From the NCBI GenBank assembly GCA_934271715.1, contig CAKQRZ010000006.1:30218-94217 (forward strand): a stretch of DNA of 64,000 bases, written 5' to 3'. The stretch is from an uncultured Alphaproteobacteria bacterium. GTDB taxonomy: Bacteria; Pseudomonadota; Alphaproteobacteria; RF32; CAG-239. The notes under the pieces are model-generated. The model had not been told where the DNA came from. It worked only from the letters and a program-made list of their open reading frames with translations, and did not search any database. How positions within the stretch are numbered: the first letter of the stretch is position 1; every line of letters starts with the position of its first letter. This document shows, one piece after another, positions 6,180 to 52,966 of the stretch. The translations under genes and the position numbers were made by a program.

Positions 6180-7799
6180 ATGCTTAAAGTTATTAAAACA
6201 ACAGCCTATAATGATATGAAAATGGGAACAGCAGGTTTGCGCAAAAAATCAAAAGTCGTCCTGCAGGAAAACTATTTGGAAAACTTTGTGCAGAGCGTTT
6301 TCAACGCTATCGGCGGAGTTGAGGGCTTAACCTTTATTTTGGGCGGCGACGGACGCTATTATAATAAAATTGCCATTCAAAAAATTATGAAAATGGCAGC
6401 TGCCAACGGTATGAAAAAAATGATTGTCGGTCAAAACGGCTTTATATCCACTCCGGCTTCTTCGCATGTTTTGCTGATGAATAAGGCTGACGGCGGCTTT
6501 GTGCTGTCGGCTTCGCACAACCCGGGGGGAATCAACGGCGATTTCGGCATTAAATATGCGGTTGCTTCCGGCGGTCAATGCCCGACGGCTATAAGCGATA
6601 AAATCTATGAGATTTCTAAAACTATCAGCGAATATAAAACTTTGGACGAACCTGATGTTGATTTAAGCAAATTAGGCACGCAGAAACTCGGCAATATGGA
6701 AATTGAAGTTATTGATCCGGTCAAAGATTATGTTGAAATGATGGAAAATATTTTTGATTTTGCCGCTATTAAAAAACTGTTCGCCAACGGGTTTACCATG
6801 GTGTTTGACGCTATGAACGCCGTAACCGGTCCTTATGCCCGCAAGATTTTTGAAGAAATTTTAGGCGCTAAGCCGGGTTCGGTTTTGAACTATGTGCCTT
6901 TGGAAGATTTCGGCGGCCTGCATCCTGACCCGAATTTGATTTATGCCAAAACTCTGGTTGATTTAATGTATTCGGATAAAGCTCCGGATTTCGGCGCTGC
7001 CAATGACGGCGACGGCGACCGCAATATGATTTTGGGCAAAAAATTCTTTGTTACGCCAAGCGACAGTTTAGCCATTCTGACAGATAACTATAAGCTGATT
7101 CCGGCTTATAAAAACGGTATTTACGGCGTTGCTAAATCCGCTGCCACTTCCACGGCTGTAGGACGCGTGGCTGAGGCGCTGAATATCGGCTACTATGAAG
7201 TTCCGACCGGCTGGAAATATTTCTGCAACCTGATGGACAGCAAGCGCATTACCTTTTGCGGCGAAGAAAGTTTCGGCACCGGCTCCAGCCACATCCGCGA
7301 AAAAGACGGAATCTGGGCGGTTCTGTTTTGGCTGAGCATTATTGCCGCAACCGGAAAATCCGTACATGAAATCACGGAAGAGCATTGGAAAAAGTACGGC
7401 CGCAGCTATTATATGCGCAATGACTATGAAGCTCTGGATACTGAAGCCGCTAACAAGCTTATGGCTGATTTAGAAAGCCGTCTGCCGGATTTAGCCGGTA
7501 AAACTTTCGGCGCTTACACCGTTTCTGAGGCTAAGCCGTTTATTTATAACGACCCTGTTGACGGCAGCTCTACTAAAAACGGCTTAATCGTATACTTTAC
7601 CGACAAATCGCGCATTGTCTACCGCTTATCCGGCACCGGCACCAACGGCGCAACCCTGCGTGTTTATCTGGAGCGCTACGAAACCAAAGATTTGAATGAG
7701 AATGTAGAGCAGATGCTGGAAAGTCTGGCTGATGTTTCCCGTCAAATCGGAGAAATTACTGAGCGCACCGGAAAAGCCAAAGCCGATGTTTTAACCTAA
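6180..7799 (+). CDS. pgm: phosphoglucomutase (alpha-D-glucose phosphate specific)
   Basis: 539 aa with the active-site SASHNPGG motif and the GDGDRN metal loop. Confidence 0.9.
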   Translation: MLKVIKTTAYNDMKMGTAGLRKKSKVVLQENYLENFVQSVFNAIGGVEGLTFILGGDGRYYNKIAIQKIMKMAAANGMKKMIVGQNGFISTPASSHVLLMNKADGGFVLSASHNPGGINGDFGIKYAVASGGQCPTAISDKIYEISKTISEYKTLDEPDVDLSKLGTQKLGNMEIEVIDPVKDYVEMMENIFDFAAIKKLFANGFTMVFDAMNAVTGPYARKIFEEILGAKPGSVLNYVPLEDFGGLHPDPNLIYAKTLVDLMYSDKAPDFGAANDGDGDRNMILGKKFFVTPSDSLAILTDNYKLIPAYKNGIYGVAKSAATSTAVGRVAEALNIGYYEVPTGWKYFCNLMDSKRITFCGEESFGTGSSHIREKDGIWAVLFWLSIIAATGKSVHEITEEHWKKYGRSYYMRNDYEALDTEAANKLMADLESRLPDLAGKTFGAYTVSEAKPFIYNDPVDGSSTKNGLIVYFTDKSRIVYRLSGTGTNGATLRVYLERYETKDLNENVEQMLESLADVSRQIGEITERTGKAKADVLT

Positions 7800-12063: not shown

Positions 12064-12141
12064 GGCGGATGTAGCTCAGTTGGTTAGAGCGCTGGTTTGT
12101 GGTACCAGATGTCGAGAGTTCAAATCCCTTCATCCGCCCCA
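12064..12141 (+). tRNA. tRNA-His (anticodon GTG)
   Basis: Manual cloverleaf: G-1 plus acceptor gcggatg/catccgc, D arm gctc..gagc, anticodon stem ctggt/accag with loop ttGTGgt, T loop ttcaaat, discriminator C, encoded CCA. There is one A-C mismatch in the T stem. Confidence 0.9.
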
Positions 12142-12250: not shown

Positions 12251-12431
12251 GGGCGTAGCAACCCTTTATCAGTATAGTCGTTACGCATAAACGACTTAAA
12301 TTTGTTATGCCGATTTCTGTTCGTTGGACGGATGTCGGCTGAATATGGCTATGCGCCGAATAGGCCGAGCCGTTTATACTGATACGGTTTGCTAACATCC
12401 GCCCGCTTTTATTACGGCGGGTTTTGTTTTT
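12251..12431 (+). promoter_or_regulatory. structured leader RNA with intrinsic terminator upstream of pilin-like P1 (unclassified, riboswitch- or attenuator-like)
   Basis: Three-part long-range helix: gggcg 12251-55 with cgccc 12400-04, tagcaacc 12256-63 with ggtttgcta 12386-94, and tatcagtata 12267-76 with tatactgata 12375-84. It encloses about 98 nt containing the local hairpin gtcgtt-acgcata-aacgac. A GC stem cccgc/gcggg plus ttttgttttt ends at 12431. The outer helix shares nucleotides with the left arm of the terminator. Confidence 0.45.
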
Positions 12432-12459
12432 ATGTAACAAAATTAACGGAGTTAGAAAT

Positions 12460-13113
12460 ATGTATAAAAATTTTGAAAAAGGCCGCTCTATGATTGAAAT
12501 GCTCGGCGTGCTGGCAATTATCTGGGTGCTGAGTGTCGGCGGGATTGCCGGATATTCTAAGGCTATGGAGAAATTCAAAATCAATAAACTTATTGAAGAA
12601 TACAGCAATATTATCTTTCACTTAGTAGAACATGAAGAAAATATTTTGAGGTCTAATTCTGATAGTCAAACCGGACTTTCTGGTATTATGGAAGCAATGA
12701 ACATTGTTCCAAACACTTGGTCTAAAATAAATGAAGTTTCATATAAAGACGCGCATGGAAATATTATTTCAGTTTATTCTGTTTTGGCTGATTATGGTAA
12801 AATCATTGGTTTTGACATGTATTTAGGCGGTATTTCCCAAAACGAACAAGGCAATAGCATCAGCGCAAATTTTTCTAAAAAACTATGTTTTGAACTGCTC
12901 AGTACGTTTGCCAATTCTTTGCACTCACAGGTATATATAATATCGGTTGCACGACGCTCTAAATATTGGGAATCAAACGGACGCTGGGGCGATAATTATT
13001 GCGGTGATGAAGAGCATAAATGTCTGGCAGCTGCGACGATTTCTGATTTTCAAGACATGTGCAAATTCTGTGATGATAATGAAGGACAATGTAACATCGG
13101 AATAAGATTTTAG
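12460..13113 (+). CDS. type IV pilin/pseudopilin-like protein, paralog P1 (short 8-aa leader)
   Basis: GGAG RBS 8 nt upstream of the ATG at 12460. Leader MYKNFEKG, then RSMIEMLGVLAIIWVLSVGGIAGY (Gly at -1, Glu at +5, hydrophobic helix). C-terminal C-x6-C-x12-C-x2-C-x6-C module. Confidence 0.8.
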   Translation: MYKNFEKGRSMIEMLGVLAIIWVLSVGGIAGYSKAMEKFKINKLIEEYSNIIFHLVEHEENILRSNSDSQTGLSGIMEAMNIVPNTWSKINEVSYKDAHGNIISVYSVLADYGKIIGFDMYLGGISQNEQGNSISANFSKKLCFELLSTFANSLHSQVYIISVARRSKYWESNGRWGDNYCGDEEHKCLAAATISDFQDMCKFCDDNEGQCNIGIRF

Positions 13114-15220: not shown

Positions 15221-15934
15221 CTAAATTCCAAACAAAAAGATGCAGACAAACAATGTGGAATAGACGATTGACGGTCCGAACGGCCCTACCCTTTGTTTTT
15301 TGATTAAGCAGCCTAGAGCAAACAAAATGCAGGAACCAAGCAGAATATATGAAATAGGCTCCAGTCCGACCCAAGCGCCGATAGCCGCCAAAAGCTTGAT
15401 ATCTCCGCCGCCGAACGCATCCGGATATTTCCAGACTAAAAACATGCTGGCGACAACCGGCATCAGATAGCCGGCGCAGGCGCCCATAAAGCTGTTCTGC
15501 GCATTGCTGACAAGCTGCGGGTCTATTGTATCAAGCCACACACCGTTAACCGCCGCATAGCCGAATCCCAAAACCAGCAGAGGCAGCGTCAAAACATCCG
15601 GCAGCAGCATAAAGCGCTTGTCAATTTCCACCAACAGCAGCATAATCCACAAAAAAGCAATGTACCAGCCGGTGTAATACGGGTCAAAATTGACGGCGAA
15701 CAAATAGGTCACGGCGGCGGTAAAAATTCCCCAGCCCAGACTTCTCATCATATAGCTTTTAAACAGCTGCATATATTCAAAATCATTTTTCAGCTTGCTC
15801 CACGGCATGCAATGCTGCGGAATAAAAATTTTAAGCAAAATATAGCCCATGGTCCCCGGCATAAGCTTGCCCAAGCGGCGTGCCAAATAGGGAATTAAAC
15901 AGCCGAAAATAAAACCTGCAATAATATAAAGCAT
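15221..15934 (-). CDS. prepilin peptidase (A24 aspartic peptidase family), no obvious N-terminal Cys-rich/methyltransferase-type region
   Basis: Polytopic membrane protein with the two catalytic Asp contexts VEIDKRFMLLPD and GGGDIKLLAAIGAWVG. Confidence 0.8.
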   Translation of the reverse strand: MLYIIAGFIFGCLIPYLARRLGKLMPGTMGYILLKIFIPQHCMPWSKLKNDFEYMQLFKSYMMRSLGWGIFTAAVTYLFAVNFDPYYTGWYIAFLWIMLLLVEIDKRFMLLPDVLTLPLLVLGFGYAAVNGVWLDTIDPQLVSNAQNSFMGACAGYLMPVVASMFLVWKYPDAFGGGDIKLLAAIGAWVGLEPISYILLGSCILFALGCLIKKQRVGPFGPSIVYSTLFVCIFLFGI

Positions 15935-31583: not shown

Positions 31584-32342
31584 TTATACCAAGTCAAGAT
31601 ACAAAACAAATGAGCATGTCTCCGTAGCACAGGTTTTGCAAAACGCATCCAACTGCACCGGTGTCAGATTATAAAAACACCGGCGCGAGCCTTTGCATTG
31701 TTTTTTACCCCAAATTACATTGCTGACTTCATAACCTGTTGCGCTGTCTGCCCTATTTCTCATCTGTAAGTTGTCAATATTCTCGTCAAACTCAGCTATC
31801 GCTTTCACTAAATTGCGGCATTGACTTTCGGTTCCTTTATTAAAAGCTGAACCGCTGTAATTCAACACAATGCCAAAATAGCATTCCGGAGCAGAGCAGC
31901 GCACCCATGTTCCGTCACTTTTCAAGCATGAGCCTAAACCATAAAAAGAAGAAAAAGTGTTGCCATAAACATCATGCAGCCGGTTTTCATCTAAGCTCAT
32001 GCCGGCAGGAATCCTGTCTAAATCGTTCAGTATGGCAATAACTGACCAATGCCCCTGCGGATTTTGTTTAACCATATCCGCCATATCTTTTTGAATTTCT
32101 ATGGTATTGTAAAGCAGCATACTTATCTGCTGCATCTGCTTATTGTCCTTAAACATCCCCATGGCTTTACTATAACCTGCAATCCCGCCGACAGATAATA
32201 CGCCGATAATAGCAAGAACTCCAAGCATTTCTATCATGGAACGCCCCTCGCTGCTGGCGTCATTGCAAGAAATGTAACGACGAAGCAATCCATTACCCTC
32301 GCCCCTATTCTTTCCTCTTAAAAAATTCATACTCTCCAACAT
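31584..32342 (-). CDS. type IV pilin/pseudopilin-like protein, paralog P2 (34-aa leader)
   Basis: AGGAGA RBS 9 nt upstream of the ATG. Leader MLESMNFLRGKNRGEGNGLLRRYISCNDASSEG, then RSMIEMLGVLAIIGVLSVGGIAGYSKAM. C-terminal C-x5-C-x12-C-x2-C-x4-C. Confidence 0.75.
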   Translation of the reverse strand: MLESMNFLRGKNRGEGNGLLRRYISCNDASSEGRSMIEMLGVLAIIGVLSVGGIAGYSKAMGMFKDNKQMQQISMLLYNTIEIQKDMADMVKQNPQGHWSVIAILNDLDRIPAGMSLDENRLHDVYGNTFSSFYGLGSCLKSDGTWVRCSAPECYFGIVLNYSGSAFNKGTESQCRNLVKAIAEFDENIDNLQMRNRADSATGYEVSNVIWGKKQCKGSRRCFYNLTPVQLDAFCKTCATETCSFVLYLDLV

Positions 32343-32358
32343 CTTATTTCTCCTATTA

Positions 32359-32534
32359 TGTGTAAAAAAAACGACCGTTATTTTTACACACTCTAAACAA
32401 GATGTTGAAAACTCTCTTAAATAGGCAAAAAATATCGCAAATATAAAAAGTTATTGCAAATTCTGGCAACCTTTGCTAGACTATAAAAAACAACTTAAAA
32501 ACTGTCCATTTTAAACGGTCGTTTTTTTTACACA
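32359..32534. promoter_or_regulatory. candidate invertible promoter (or MITE-like element) X: perfect 21-bp inverted repeats flanking 134 bp
   Basis: IRL tgtgtaaaaaaaacgaccgtt at 32359-79 has its exact reverse complement at 32514-34. Inside is TTGCAA (32454-59), a 17-nt spacer, then TAGACT (32477-82) on the + strand, pointing away from P2. Confidence 0.5.
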
Positions 32535-32605
32535 CTTTTCGACATTCCAAAGCTTTGATTTTACTAAACTAAAATTATCTTTGATTGAATGCCTAACTAT
32601 TAAAG

Positions 32606-33694
32606 CTATTCCGTCAATAATTTTTCATATTGTTCCGACAAGCAATAGGTACGGTTTTTCTTTGCCTTATTCGCCATTTTTAAGAATTCGGCTTCAACCC
32701 ATTTATTTAGCAGCAGCCTTGCCGATTGTGAGGACAAGCCTAAATATTGCCCAGCTTGATTAGAGGTAATTTCTTTATACTCAGTAAATAATTCAAGAAT
32801 TTTCCGCTGTTTGATATCAAGATTTCTCAACATCGGCACTATATCTGCCGTTGTCTTATTATTTTGTTCGGCGGATGCTTTAATATCTATATTAGCAAAG
32901 GCTTCTGATACGCCTTTTATAAAATATTCCAGCCAAGAAGTTATATCTGCATTATTACGTCCATAATAATAATTATGATGCGGATGAGTCACTAATGCGT
33001 TATAATAATCTTGCAAATTCTTAGCATAATATTCTTCAAGCGAATAAATGCCTTTTAACCCATATCCGTATTTCCGCATTAAATAGCTTGTGACTAACCG
33101 GGCTGTTCGTCCGTTGCCGTCATAATATGGGTGTATCGTCACAAATTGATAGTGAAAAAGTCCGGCTATAATCGGTATCGGCAGGATATCTGCATTATTC
33201 TTTACCCATTTTACCAAATCTTTCATTAGACTCGGAACATCTTTGGCTTCGGGCGGCAAATATATCATTGCCCCATCAGAACTGTCATATATTACATTCT
33301 GCCCGTCACGATAAGGAATAGTCTTTTTCTGGTTTTCTATAATTGTATGTATTTTCTGGATAAAACTTTCAGAGAACGGTTCATTTATTTCTAAATATTT
33401 TTCCATATAGTTAATTGCTGCATAATACGCTTTCACTTCCTTTTCATCATGTCCTTGATAATCATTTGCAGATTTACTGCCGGAATATAATGCGGTTTCA
33501 ACCTGCTTAAAAGAAAGATTATTGCCTTCAATTTGCGTAGAATAATGAGTTTGGGCAACTTTAGCCGATTTATGCAATGAAGATAAAATAACCGGAGACA
33601 GCCGCTTATCCTCAAAACCATTCTTAACCACTTCAATTTTTGTAAGATTAGAAAGAATATTTTTAGTAATTGTATATTTAGGCATCCAGCTCAT
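32606..33694 (-). CDS. Fic-family protein (class II-like, with internal inhibitory motif) and C-terminal wHTH-like region
   Basis: Fic motif HPYYDGNGRTAR. N-terminal STQIEG matches the (S/T)xxxE(G/N) inhibitory helix. GGAG RBS upstream of the ATG at 33694. Confidence 0.85.
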   Translation of the reverse strand: MSWMPKYTITKNILSNLTKIEVVKNGFEDKRLSPVILSSLHKSAKVAQTHYSTQIEGNNLSFKQVETALYSGSKSANDYQGHDEKEVKAYYAAINYMEKYLEINEPFSESFIQKIHTIIENQKKTIPYRDGQNVIYDSSDGAMIYLPPEAKDVPSLMKDLVKWVKNNADILPIPIIAGLFHYQFVTIHPYYDGNGRTARLVTSYLMRKYGYGLKGIYSLEEYYAKNLQDYYNALVTHPHHNYYYGRNNADITSWLEYFIKGVSEAFANIDIKASAEQNNKTTADIVPMLRNLDIKQRKILELFTEYKEITSNQAGQYLGLSSQSARLLLNKWVEAEFLKMANKAKKNRTYCLSEQYEKLLTE

Positions 33695-33782
33695 CTGCAG
33701 TCTCCGATAGTTTATGATTATAATATGATTAAATAACGAATAAATCAATAATAATTTAAGTTTATCTGAAATATTTTTACAT

Positions 33783-33810
33783 TTGACTTATTGCTACATT
33801 AGCCTATAAT
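33783..33810 (+). promoter_or_regulatory. sigma70-like promoter of the P3 cassette
   Basis: TTGACT, 16-nt spacer, TATAAT, about 36 nt upstream of the GAGGAAAG RBS and the ATG at 33847. Confidence 0.55.
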
Positions 33811-33870
33811 AGTAATATCAATTAACCTAAAAATGAGGAAAGAAAGATGAAAAATAAGCTATTCAAAGGT

Positions 33871-33884
33871 CTCTCTCTCTCTCT
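33871..33884 (+). repeat. (CT)7 dinucleotide tract in the 5' coding leader of P3
   Basis: Counted directly: ggt ctctctctctctct gca. Confidence 0.95.
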
Positions 33885-38769: not shown

Positions 38770-38842
38770 TTTTACTATTGAAAATCTGTTTTTTCTGCTT
38801 GAAAACGCGCAGTTTTTACGATAATATTATTATATAAATAAA

Positions 38843-39033
38843 GACTGTCTGATGCGTCATCACCGCATGTCTTTCCGGCCAACATTATTTTTTAGGGAGC
38901 TGTCTCTGTCTAAATCGTGGTTTAGTTATATGGCACCCACCTTGTACAAGCGGTTCGGTAGAGAATGTTCTCGGATACGGTCAGACGGTCGCAGATTTGG
39001 CACCGCCCTTTTGGGGCGGTGTTTTTCTTTTTT
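38843..39033 (+). ncRNA. ssrS: probable 6S RNA
   Basis: Located immediately after zapA, as in E. coli. Closing helix gactgtctga (38843-52) with tcagacggtc (38981-90). Internal caccttgtacaagcggttcggtag resembles the conserved E. coli 6S segment CACCUUGAACCAAGGGUUCAAGG. Terminator caccgccc-tttt-ggggcggtg plus a T-run at 39001-33. Confidence 0.6.
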
Positions 39034-52718: not shown

Positions 52719-52806
52719 CATTAAAAGCCGAAGTTCTTTATGAACTTAGGCTTTTTGCTTGCCGGTAGAAAAGCTGAAAAAAACAGCCTAAAAACTGTCC
52801 ATTTTA

Positions 52807-52827
52807 AACGGTCGTTTTTTTTACACA
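52807..52827. repeat. solo copy of the 21-bp inverted-repeat arm (IRR type)
   Basis: aacggtcgttttttttacaca is identical to 32514-34 and 41081-101. No partner arm or internal promoter is present at this locus. Confidence 0.9.
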
Positions 52828-52860
52828 CTTTCGACCATAATAACACTTTGATTTTTCCGG

Positions 52861-52890: not shown

Positions 52891-52950
52891 TGGAGTGTAA
52901 ACAACATAATTTTAGAGGAAAGAAAGATGAAAAATAAGCTATTCAAAGGT

Positions 52951-52966
52951 CTCTCTCTCTCTCTCT
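52951..52966 (+). repeat. (CT)8 dinucleotide tract in the 5' coding leader of P5
   Basis: Counted directly. Confidence 0.95.

Follow-up and report, generated by a model that had tools for sequence, protein, structure and literature searches.

A candidate promoter inverton upstream of a pilin-like gene in an uncultured alphaproteobacterium

We examined a 64,000-nt stretch of contig CAKQRZ010000006.1 from an uncultured Alphaproteobacteria bacterium (the window, whose own numbering supplies every coordinate given below without a locus name). In this stretch the start of the pilin-like gene P2 adjoins Element X, a segment of 176 bp that is bounded by perfect inverted repeats and carries a promoter pointing away from P2; a fic (Fic/DOC) open reading frame (ORF) lies on its far side (Table 1). 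Element X is probably a promoter inverton, a phase-variation switch for P2 that was captured in the OFF orientation and is flipped in trans.

Anatomy of Element X and its copies in the window

The original prediction, made from the letters alone, described exact 21-nt inverted repeats around 134 bp, and a sequence check bears this out: the left and right repeats (IRL and IRR) are 100% complementary over their 21 nt, with 134 nt between them. The interior has no coding content, and an Rfam scan covering the window assigned Element X to no known RNA family. IRL had also been described as half of a local palindrome, as indeed it is. The palindrome spans 32 bp, with 15-nt arms at 93% complementarity around a 2-nt centre, AC, and it forms a candidate left recombination site, the core of which is ACG-AC-CGT (sequence AAACGACCGT). 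At the right site the inner half, TGTCCATTTTAAACG, is degenerate, and this degenerate form is kept strongly among ~30 paralogous copies of the element.

A promoter of the form TTGCAA-17 nt-TAGACT had been placed on the plus strand and is present there at 32454-82, with the end of its -10 hexamer 31 nt from IRR; it currently faces away from P2. The two hexamers match the sigma-70 consensus at 8 of 12 positions, so the motif falls below the threshold of a stricter sigma-70 scan (which lists motifs scoring at least 9/12) and is unlisted there. It is the conservation of its position across copies of the element, and not its score, that supports this promoter. On the opposite side of Element X, the AGGAGA ribosome-binding site (RBS) of P2 had been placed 16 nt beyond IRL. 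The motif exists, 4 nt from the repeat, and what lies at 16 nt is the ATG.

The 21-mer of Element X is present in the window in five exact copies, and in seven when up to three mismatches are allowed, with 0 in 100 dinucleotide-preserving shuffles. Besides Element X itself (copy 1), the window holds a second full copy (copy 2) and a remnant (copy 3) that consists of a solo right arm, ~30 nt of interior and a conserved right flank, without promoter and without left arm. Copy 2 carries a plus-strand promoter in the same place as Element X, TTGCAT (41021-26), a 17-nt spacer and TACATT (41044-49). It is OFF for the gene to its left, which encodes a 589-aa Cys-rich secreted protein, and another assembly has the same orientation. 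Element X and copy 2 share 80% identity over 261 nt, the first codons of the genes included.

Copies 2 and 3 are followed on the right, after about 40 nt, by a conserved module in which a TTGACT promoter precedes a short leader ORF, containing a (TC)n tract, and then a pilin-like gene. For copy 1 this module is found 1.25 kb further on, with fic between the module and Element X, so that fic looks like an insertion at this point. The prediction called fic convergent; this is correct with respect to the plus-strand promoter, which in the OFF state is directed antisense into fic, and incorrect with respect to P2, with which fic is co-directional. Because fic appears to have been inserted where the right-hand module would otherwise follow the element, antisense firing into it looks incidental.

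Table 1. Features of the window that bear on Element X, in window coordinates.
Feature	Position	Strand	Description
P2	31584..32342	-	252-aa pilin-like protein; class III signal-like motif G/RSMIEMLGVLAIIGVL following a long leader
P2 translation start region	32340..32358	-	ATG (32342-40); AGGAGA RBS (32354-49); 4 nt to IRL
IRL	32359..32379	+	21 nt, TGTGTAAAAAAAACGACCGTT
Left recombination-site candidate	32359..32390		32-bp palindrome TGTGTAAAAAAAACG-AC-CGTTATTTTTACACA; two 15-nt half-sites and 2-nt core
Candidate invertible interior	32380..32513		134 bp; homologous interiors reverse-complemented between orthologous flanks elsewhere
Outward promoter	32454..32482	+	-35 TTGCAA (32454-59), 17-nt spacer, -10 TAGACT (32477-82)
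Right site	32503..32534		TGTCCATTTTAAACG-GT-CGTTTTTTTTACACA; inner half matches half-site consensus 9/15
IRR	32514..32534	-	Exact reverse complement of IRL
fic (Fic/DOC) ORF	32606-33748	-	Within 1.25-kb stretch 32563-33816; same gap only 41 nt in copies 2 and 3
Second full copy (copy 2)	40925..41102		22-nt arms 40925-46 and 41081-102; 134-nt interior
589-aa Cys-rich secreted protein	39140..40909	-	Motif KICFLPD; ATG 16 nt from copy 2 left arm
Remnant copy (copy 3)	52778..52855		Solo right arm (52807-27), ~30 nt interior, conserved right flank
Prepilin peptidase (type IV leader), Peptidase_A24	15221-15934	-	E 1e-16

Elsewhere in the window, the Rfam scan found a 6S/SsrS RNA at 38839-38995 (plus strand, 58.6 bits) and a tRNA gene at 12065-12138 (plus strand).

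Dispersal and orientation of the element family

We scanned contigs of one genome per species for exact matches to the 21-mer arm, which listed more than 80 match blocks; the related loci fetched are designated here by L numbers. Nearly all of the arm matches listed come from metagenome-assembled genomes (MAGs) of uncultured human-gut Alphaproteobacteria. A few lie in bins labelled as other taxa, with element flanks nearly identical to those of Alphaproteobacteria MAGs. Four such bins carrying the element, CAVKTH, CAVIDY, CAVEOB and CAVGVF, are titled Bacteroidaceae, [Ruminococcus] gnavus or Eubacteriales and are probably mislabelled or contaminated. The search for further copies, which had turned up copy 2 and the solo arm in the window, thus extends to dozens per genome: the identical 21-mer forms more than 130 arms in 11 MAGs, with at least 50 exact arms in MAG CAKQDU, and these uncultured gut Alphaproteobacteria hold at least 25 copies of the element each. 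Elements of this family explain contig breaks in these MAGs.

The architecture seen in the window recurs across the family. Paired arms lie exactly 155 nt apart, start to start, in 29 of 44 cases, as they do in the window, and 154 or 156 nt apart in 10 more. A promoter of the form TTGCAA (at most one mismatch)-N16-18-TAnnnT, pointing in one direction only, is present in 54 of 57 elements; its spacer is 17 nt in 51 elements, and its -10 hexamer ends 29-32 nt from one arm (31 nt in 44). Within the -10 hexamer the middle positions vary and T1, A2 and T6 are constant, the pattern expected of a working -10. Outside 51 of the arms there is an RBS with a start codon at 14-17 nt, mostly 16 nt. The genes that begin there encode pilin-like proteins with the motif G/RSMIEMLGVLAI in 37 cases, Cys-rich "CFLPD" secreted proteins in 8 and other proteins in 6. 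At locus L034 (1673-1861) genes start 33 nt outside both arms, and they encode two divergent 489-aa Cys-rich paralogs; with starts on both sides, one promoter there would toggle between two genes. The promoter is kept in ~40 paralogous copies in which it faces away from the adjacent gene, toward right flanks of varied content, and this is hard to explain unless inversion uses it.

Short, noncoding, multicopy sequences with perfect terminal inverted repeats could also be miniature inverted-repeat transposable elements (MITEs) or resemble repetitive extragenic palindromic (REP) sequences, spread by transposition, never inverting, and only by accident upstream of genes. The original prediction had offered a MITE as its alternative, to be recognized by many copies in contexts unrelated to gene starts. 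The copies are many, yet they are tightly linked to gene starts: genes of a few families, with an RBS and a start codon, begin 14-17 nt from the 51 arms. No target-site duplications surround the elements, and no direct repeats occur in the 43 flank pairs listed; in the window, copy 1 lies between ATTA and CTTT and copy 2 between ATTA and TTCC. Homology between copies reaches the 5' end of the gene, pointing to spread by duplication of the gene family, and orthologous loci differ by a clean inversion of the interior and by nothing else. We therefore give the transposition hypothesis almost no credence.

Inversion itself can be read from three orthologous locus pairs in different MAGs, in which the flanks are co-linear (~85-99% identity) and the interior is reverse-complemented. 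Between L008 and L067 the flanks are ~99% identical, and the interior scores 121 of 133 in the flipped sense versus 25 in the co-linear sense. L017 and L077 have flanks of ~89% identity, with an interior that is 89% identical over 155 nt on the strand opposite to the flank matches. For L033 and L057 the gene flank is ~85% identical and the interior scores 65 in the flipped sense versus -15 in the co-linear sense. In each pair homology switches strand inside 32-35-bp palindromic sites, and both ends of the elements seen flipped have the same palindrome as the left site of Element X. These three pairs are direct evidence of inversion in the family. Together with the conserved promoter and the fixed gene starts, they support the candidate inverton proposed in the original prediction at the level of the element family.

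They also bear on a different reading of the palindromes, as operators for a transcription factor at a fixed, divergent promoter region that undergoes no rearrangement. Near-perfect 32-bp palindromes placed around a promoter and common to a regulon-like gene family would suit such operators. Interiors that lie inverted between orthologous flanks are left unexplained by them, as is a conserved promoter facing away from the only consistently adjacent gene, and we regard this reading as very improbable.

We define as ON the state in which the promoter end adjoins the gene start, which is the case for one copy of each flipped pair. The ON copies are L004, L031, L057, L077 and probably L008; ~40 copies are OFF, both window copies included. 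L004 is ON before the gene of a 404-aa membrane protein and is of the same subtype as the window copies. A further candidate for two orientations of one locus within a single MAG, L058 and L066, was rejected: their flanks match over ~50 nt only, which makes them paralogs, and L058 is truncated. At L063 (1489-1520) a single palindromic site without interior is bounded by the same flanks as the full switch of L033 and L057. Such solo sites, at L063 and in the remnant at 52778-52855, may have arisen by deletion through the recombination system.

The candidate recombinase and the proposed operation of the switch

The enzyme that would flip Element X is most likely an Mpi-type serine invertase, such as the one encoded in a sister MAG. 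A palindrome with a 2-nt asymmetric centre, of which one half-site and the core are shared as an inverted repeat, is the site layout of small serine invertases (hix/gix). Among ~80 related loci, serine recombinases occur only in L073, a MAG contig whose element flanks are the closest to those of the window. There, the element copy lies at 118-293 and an ORF of 215 aa (1958-2605) lies 1.66 kb from it. With 275.8 bits (curated cutoff 272) and E 2e-82, this ORF matches the NCBIfam equivalog model NF009949, "master DNA invertase Mpi family serine-type recombinase." The cutoff is also passed by P0174 (279.6 bits), P0232 (273 bits) and L089 (312 bits). Close homologues of the L073 protein are numerous, at 75-87% identity, and several bear the same NCBI name in Alphaproteobacteria MAGs. 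All of these Mpi-family matches come from related MAGs.

A second small serine recombinase gene, with Resolvase and HTH_7 domains, is repeatedly found a few kb or less from the Mpi-family gene; in L073 it lies at 6720-7280, and the arrangement is seen also in L085 and L089. These islands carry, in addition, phage-type integrases, Hachiman-like genes (HamA and a helicase), methylases or radical-SAM genes, so a mobile island may be what spreads the "master invertase." We considered the second protein of L073 (186 aa) as the invertase and rejected it: it scores 62 bits on the Mpi model, and elsewhere it occurs in integrase and defence islands without arms within 10 kb.

Would an enzyme of another kind serve as well? 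The site of Element X can alternatively be parsed as two 12-nt arms around an 8-bp spacer, ACGACCGT, and a 12+8+12 arrangement would suit a tyrosine recombinase. The presence in L073 of the second Resolvase and HTH_7 protein offers another small serine recombinase that is not Mpi-like, and the Mpi-like gene stands in mobile-looking islands, beside integrases and defence genes. Set against these points, no tyrosine recombinase adjoins the ~80 fetched loci except for weak matches in L001 and L057, the 2-nt asymmetric centre is the layout of a serine invertase, as generally known from hix and gix, and the L073 match passes the curated cutoff of the Mpi equivalog model. An inverton flipped by one of these other recombinases is unlikely in our estimate.

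With an Mpi-type invertase, the switch would work as follows. The recombinase, encoded elsewhere in the genome, would bind both sites as dimers and bring them into synapsis. Strand exchange at the central AC/GT dinucleotide, by cleavage, rotation and religation, would invert the ~155 bp that separate the centres of the two sites and leave the promoter facing P2. Transcription would start ~7 nt after TAGACT, and the 5' untranslated region, of ~60 nt, would include the arm and lead into the AGGAGA RBS. Each of the many pilin-like and secreted-protein paralogs has its own switch, there are dozens of these, and most are OFF in the assemblies. Cells of one population would therefore differ in which of these surface proteins they express.

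Several observations weigh against Element X as a working inverton under this enzyme. As the original prediction had said, the 64-kb window has no recombinase gene, none being found among its six-frame ORFs by phmmer with Hin, FimB and XerD. On five other contigs no arms lie within 10 kb of the Mpi-like gene, which is in variable islands there; the link between Mpi and the element consists of co-occurrence in the lineage and one shared contig, which is not proof. No flipped state was seen at the Element X locus, with the same orientation in the other assemblies, L081 and L091; look-ups of P2 and of the 589-aa protein in other assemblies merged similar places, so that minority orientations are invisible in them. 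All nine ortholog or paralog pairs of the window's subtype have one orientation, and no single-gene copy of that subtype was seen flipped. L004 is the sole ON copy of the subtype, and its other flank holds a decayed gene start, so that it was once flanked by two starts. We scanned metagenome contigs for the flipped junction, given as CCTNNNN, arm and TAAA (for Element X, ...CTCCTATTA-TGTGTAAAAAAAACGACCGTT-TAAAATGGACAG...), and obtained two matches, both ordinary OFF copies in which the flank away from the gene fits the pattern by chance; the number of normal copies in the collection is not known, so this result says nothing on the frequency of flipping. In each of the three flipped pairs the palindrome is complete at either end of the element, whereas the right site in the window has the degenerate inner half, at 9/15. 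The OFF state may, moreover, be leaky and P2 not silent. The sigma-70 scan lists two minus-strand motifs aimed at P2, TGGACA-17-TATAGT and TTGCCA-18-TATATT, and the position of the second is occupied again in 22 of the 54 copies. The gap between fic and P2 holds no predicted terminator. P2 may thus be transcribed by read-through from the co-directional fic or from a weak leftward promoter-like motif.

A Logan contig that ends 24 nt upstream of P2 was considered as a sign of flipping and rejected, since the repeat alone accounts for the break.

The absence of flipped pairs in the window's subtype, its ~40 copies in the OFF state, the confinement of observed flips to elements with two full palindromes, the minus-strand promoter-like motifs and the lack of a predicted fic-P2 terminator would all suit an inverton that is locked or decaying. 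In such a case the family would be invertible, and the window's subtype, having lost an inner half-site, would flip never or very rarely, with P2 expressed through fic read-through or a weak leftward promoter. Products of decay are known, in the form of the solo arm at 52807-27 and the single site of L063. A dead switch should decay, however, and ~30 paralogs have kept the promoter, the degenerate half-site and perfect 21-nt arms while the rest of the interior has diverged. L004, of the same subtype, is ON, and OFF at many loci in a consensus assembly is what one-of-many expression predicts. We consider a locked or decaying switch quite improbable.

Target genes and comparison with known switches

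P2 is the gene that the switch would control. The sequence G/RSMIEMLGVLAIIGVLSVGG is invariant across the five pilin-like paralogs of the window. On TIGR02532, P2 scores 12.5 bits, below the cutoff of 16.3. A Pfam search of P2 gave no match. Its AlphaFold2 model is of low confidence, with a predicted local distance difference test score (pLDDT) of 60, and the best fold match in the PDB is the minor pilin TcpB, at E 0.012. The Peptidase_A24 prepilin peptidase in the window fits the pilin reading, though the evidence from hidden Markov models and folds is sub-threshold. The fifth pilin-like paralog lies at 12424-13113 and lacks an upstream element.

The short leader ORFs upstream of three pilin-like genes, ATGAAAAATAAGCTATTCAAAGG-(TC)n, contain tracts of (TC)7 at 33870-33883, (TC)7 at 41224-41237 and (TC)8 at 52950-52965. 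With 7 TC units the leader stops after 18 codons, and the loss of one unit would join it to the pilin ORF in a single reading frame. Among related loci, 10 genes have 7 units and are out of frame, and 1 gene has 6 units and is in frame. The tracts look like slipped-strand translational phase variation, a second type of switch on the same gene family. At 40795-40850 and 41640-41700 there is, in the same DNA orientation, a repeat of ~60 nt that contains a hairpin, CAACAAGATTCTAGGCAC...GCCTAGAATGACTGGTGCTAGAGGCGC. The two copies fall in sequence coding for the leaders of two genes that are read from opposite strands, with the frame open in both, and eight more copies occur in related loci. It may be a REP-like insert that is tolerated by long prepilin leaders.

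Bacteroides is the best-known host of invertons that a global serine invertase controls. The inverted-repeat core in Bacteroides fragilis is ARACGTWCGT (ACG-NN-CGT), and the ACG-AC-CGT found here appears to resemble it. There, promoter invertons of the capsular polysaccharides are reported to be under a serine "master invertase," Mpi, acting in trans (Krinos 2001; Coyne 2003). The Mpi-dependent promoter invertons of B. fragilis are the closest known system, with the same logic and probably the same recombinase family. The shared traits are short promoter segments, perfect inverted repeats of ~20 bp and dispersed copies with one consensus, together with a global recombinase encoded elsewhere (as we infer here), surface targets in a gut commensal and most loci OFF in the consensus; the present lineage encodes a protein above the NCBIfam equivalog cutoff for the Mpi family. 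The role of mpi in inversion in B. fragilis has been confirmed (PMC10403206). The present system differs in its host, an uncultured alphaproteobacterium and not a member of the Bacteroidales, in its far greater number of copies (at least 25 per MAG, compared with 13 regions reported for Mpi) and in its shorter interior of 134 bp. Its targets are single genes for pilin-like or secreted proteins, whose ATG stands 16 nt beyond the arm, whereas those of B. fragilis are long polysaccharide operons, and its promoter is sigma-70-like (TTGCAA/TAnnnT) and not of the Bacteroides -33/-7 type.

Other switches are more distant. The Hin, Gin, Cin and Pin systems, with their hix and gix sites, have the same imperfect palindromes with a 2-nt asymmetric core and one half-site plus core shared, and a small serine recombinase is the likely enzyme for Element X too. 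In contrast to them, Element X has no recombinase gene or recognisable enhancer inside or beside the segment, which measures 134 bp rather than 1-4 kb; its half-sites are 15 nt long as opposed to 12, and there are many target loci per genome. In the fimS switch of Escherichia coli and other fimbrial switches driven by tyrosine recombinases (FimB/FimE, MrpI), a promoter that can invert likewise stands just in front of the gene for a pilus or fimbrial subunit and gives ON/OFF phase variation. Those tyrosine recombinases are encoded beside the switch, whereas none adjoins here, the inverted repeats are 21 nt here versus 9 bp in fimS, and these genomes have dozens of switches. As no recombinase adjoins it, Element X is not of the Hin/Gin type or the fim type. 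The sap system of Campylobacter fetus, a promoter between two divergent starts, resembles L034, the ancestry of L004 and possibly copy 2 of the window. Unlike sap, the segment here is far smaller, its inversion would be site-specific and not RecA-dependent, and most copies, Element X included, are one-sided. Inverton surveys in the literature mention Alphaproteobacteria in passing, and our literature searches found nothing on this lineage or gene family, nor any account of invertons with a global serine invertase in gut Alphaproteobacteria.

The switch is of a known kind; the lineage in which it occurs is new, and the number of copies is unusually high. Whether small-genome uncultured human-gut Alphaproteobacteria have one of the densest inverton regulons known is, in our judgement, evenly balanced. 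It would comprise at least 25 switches per genome built on a single 21-nt arm, which does not differ between species, probably under one Mpi-type invertase. Each switch would gate one pilin-like or Cys-rich protein, some would toggle two divergent genes, and the system would be layered with the independent (TC)n switch on neighbouring pilin paralogs, so that a lineage without cultured representatives would vary its pilus or pseudopilus surface combinatorially. The invariant 21-mer offers a handle for PhaseFinder-style analysis of reads in existing metagenomes, and site and invertase form a defined pair of substrate and enzyme. If the proposal is correct, a striking share of a small genome would be given over to stochastic variation of pilin-like surface proteins, by DNA inversion and by (TC)n slippage, which would suggest that in this lineage a pilus-like organelle is under strong pressure from immunity, phages or the niche.

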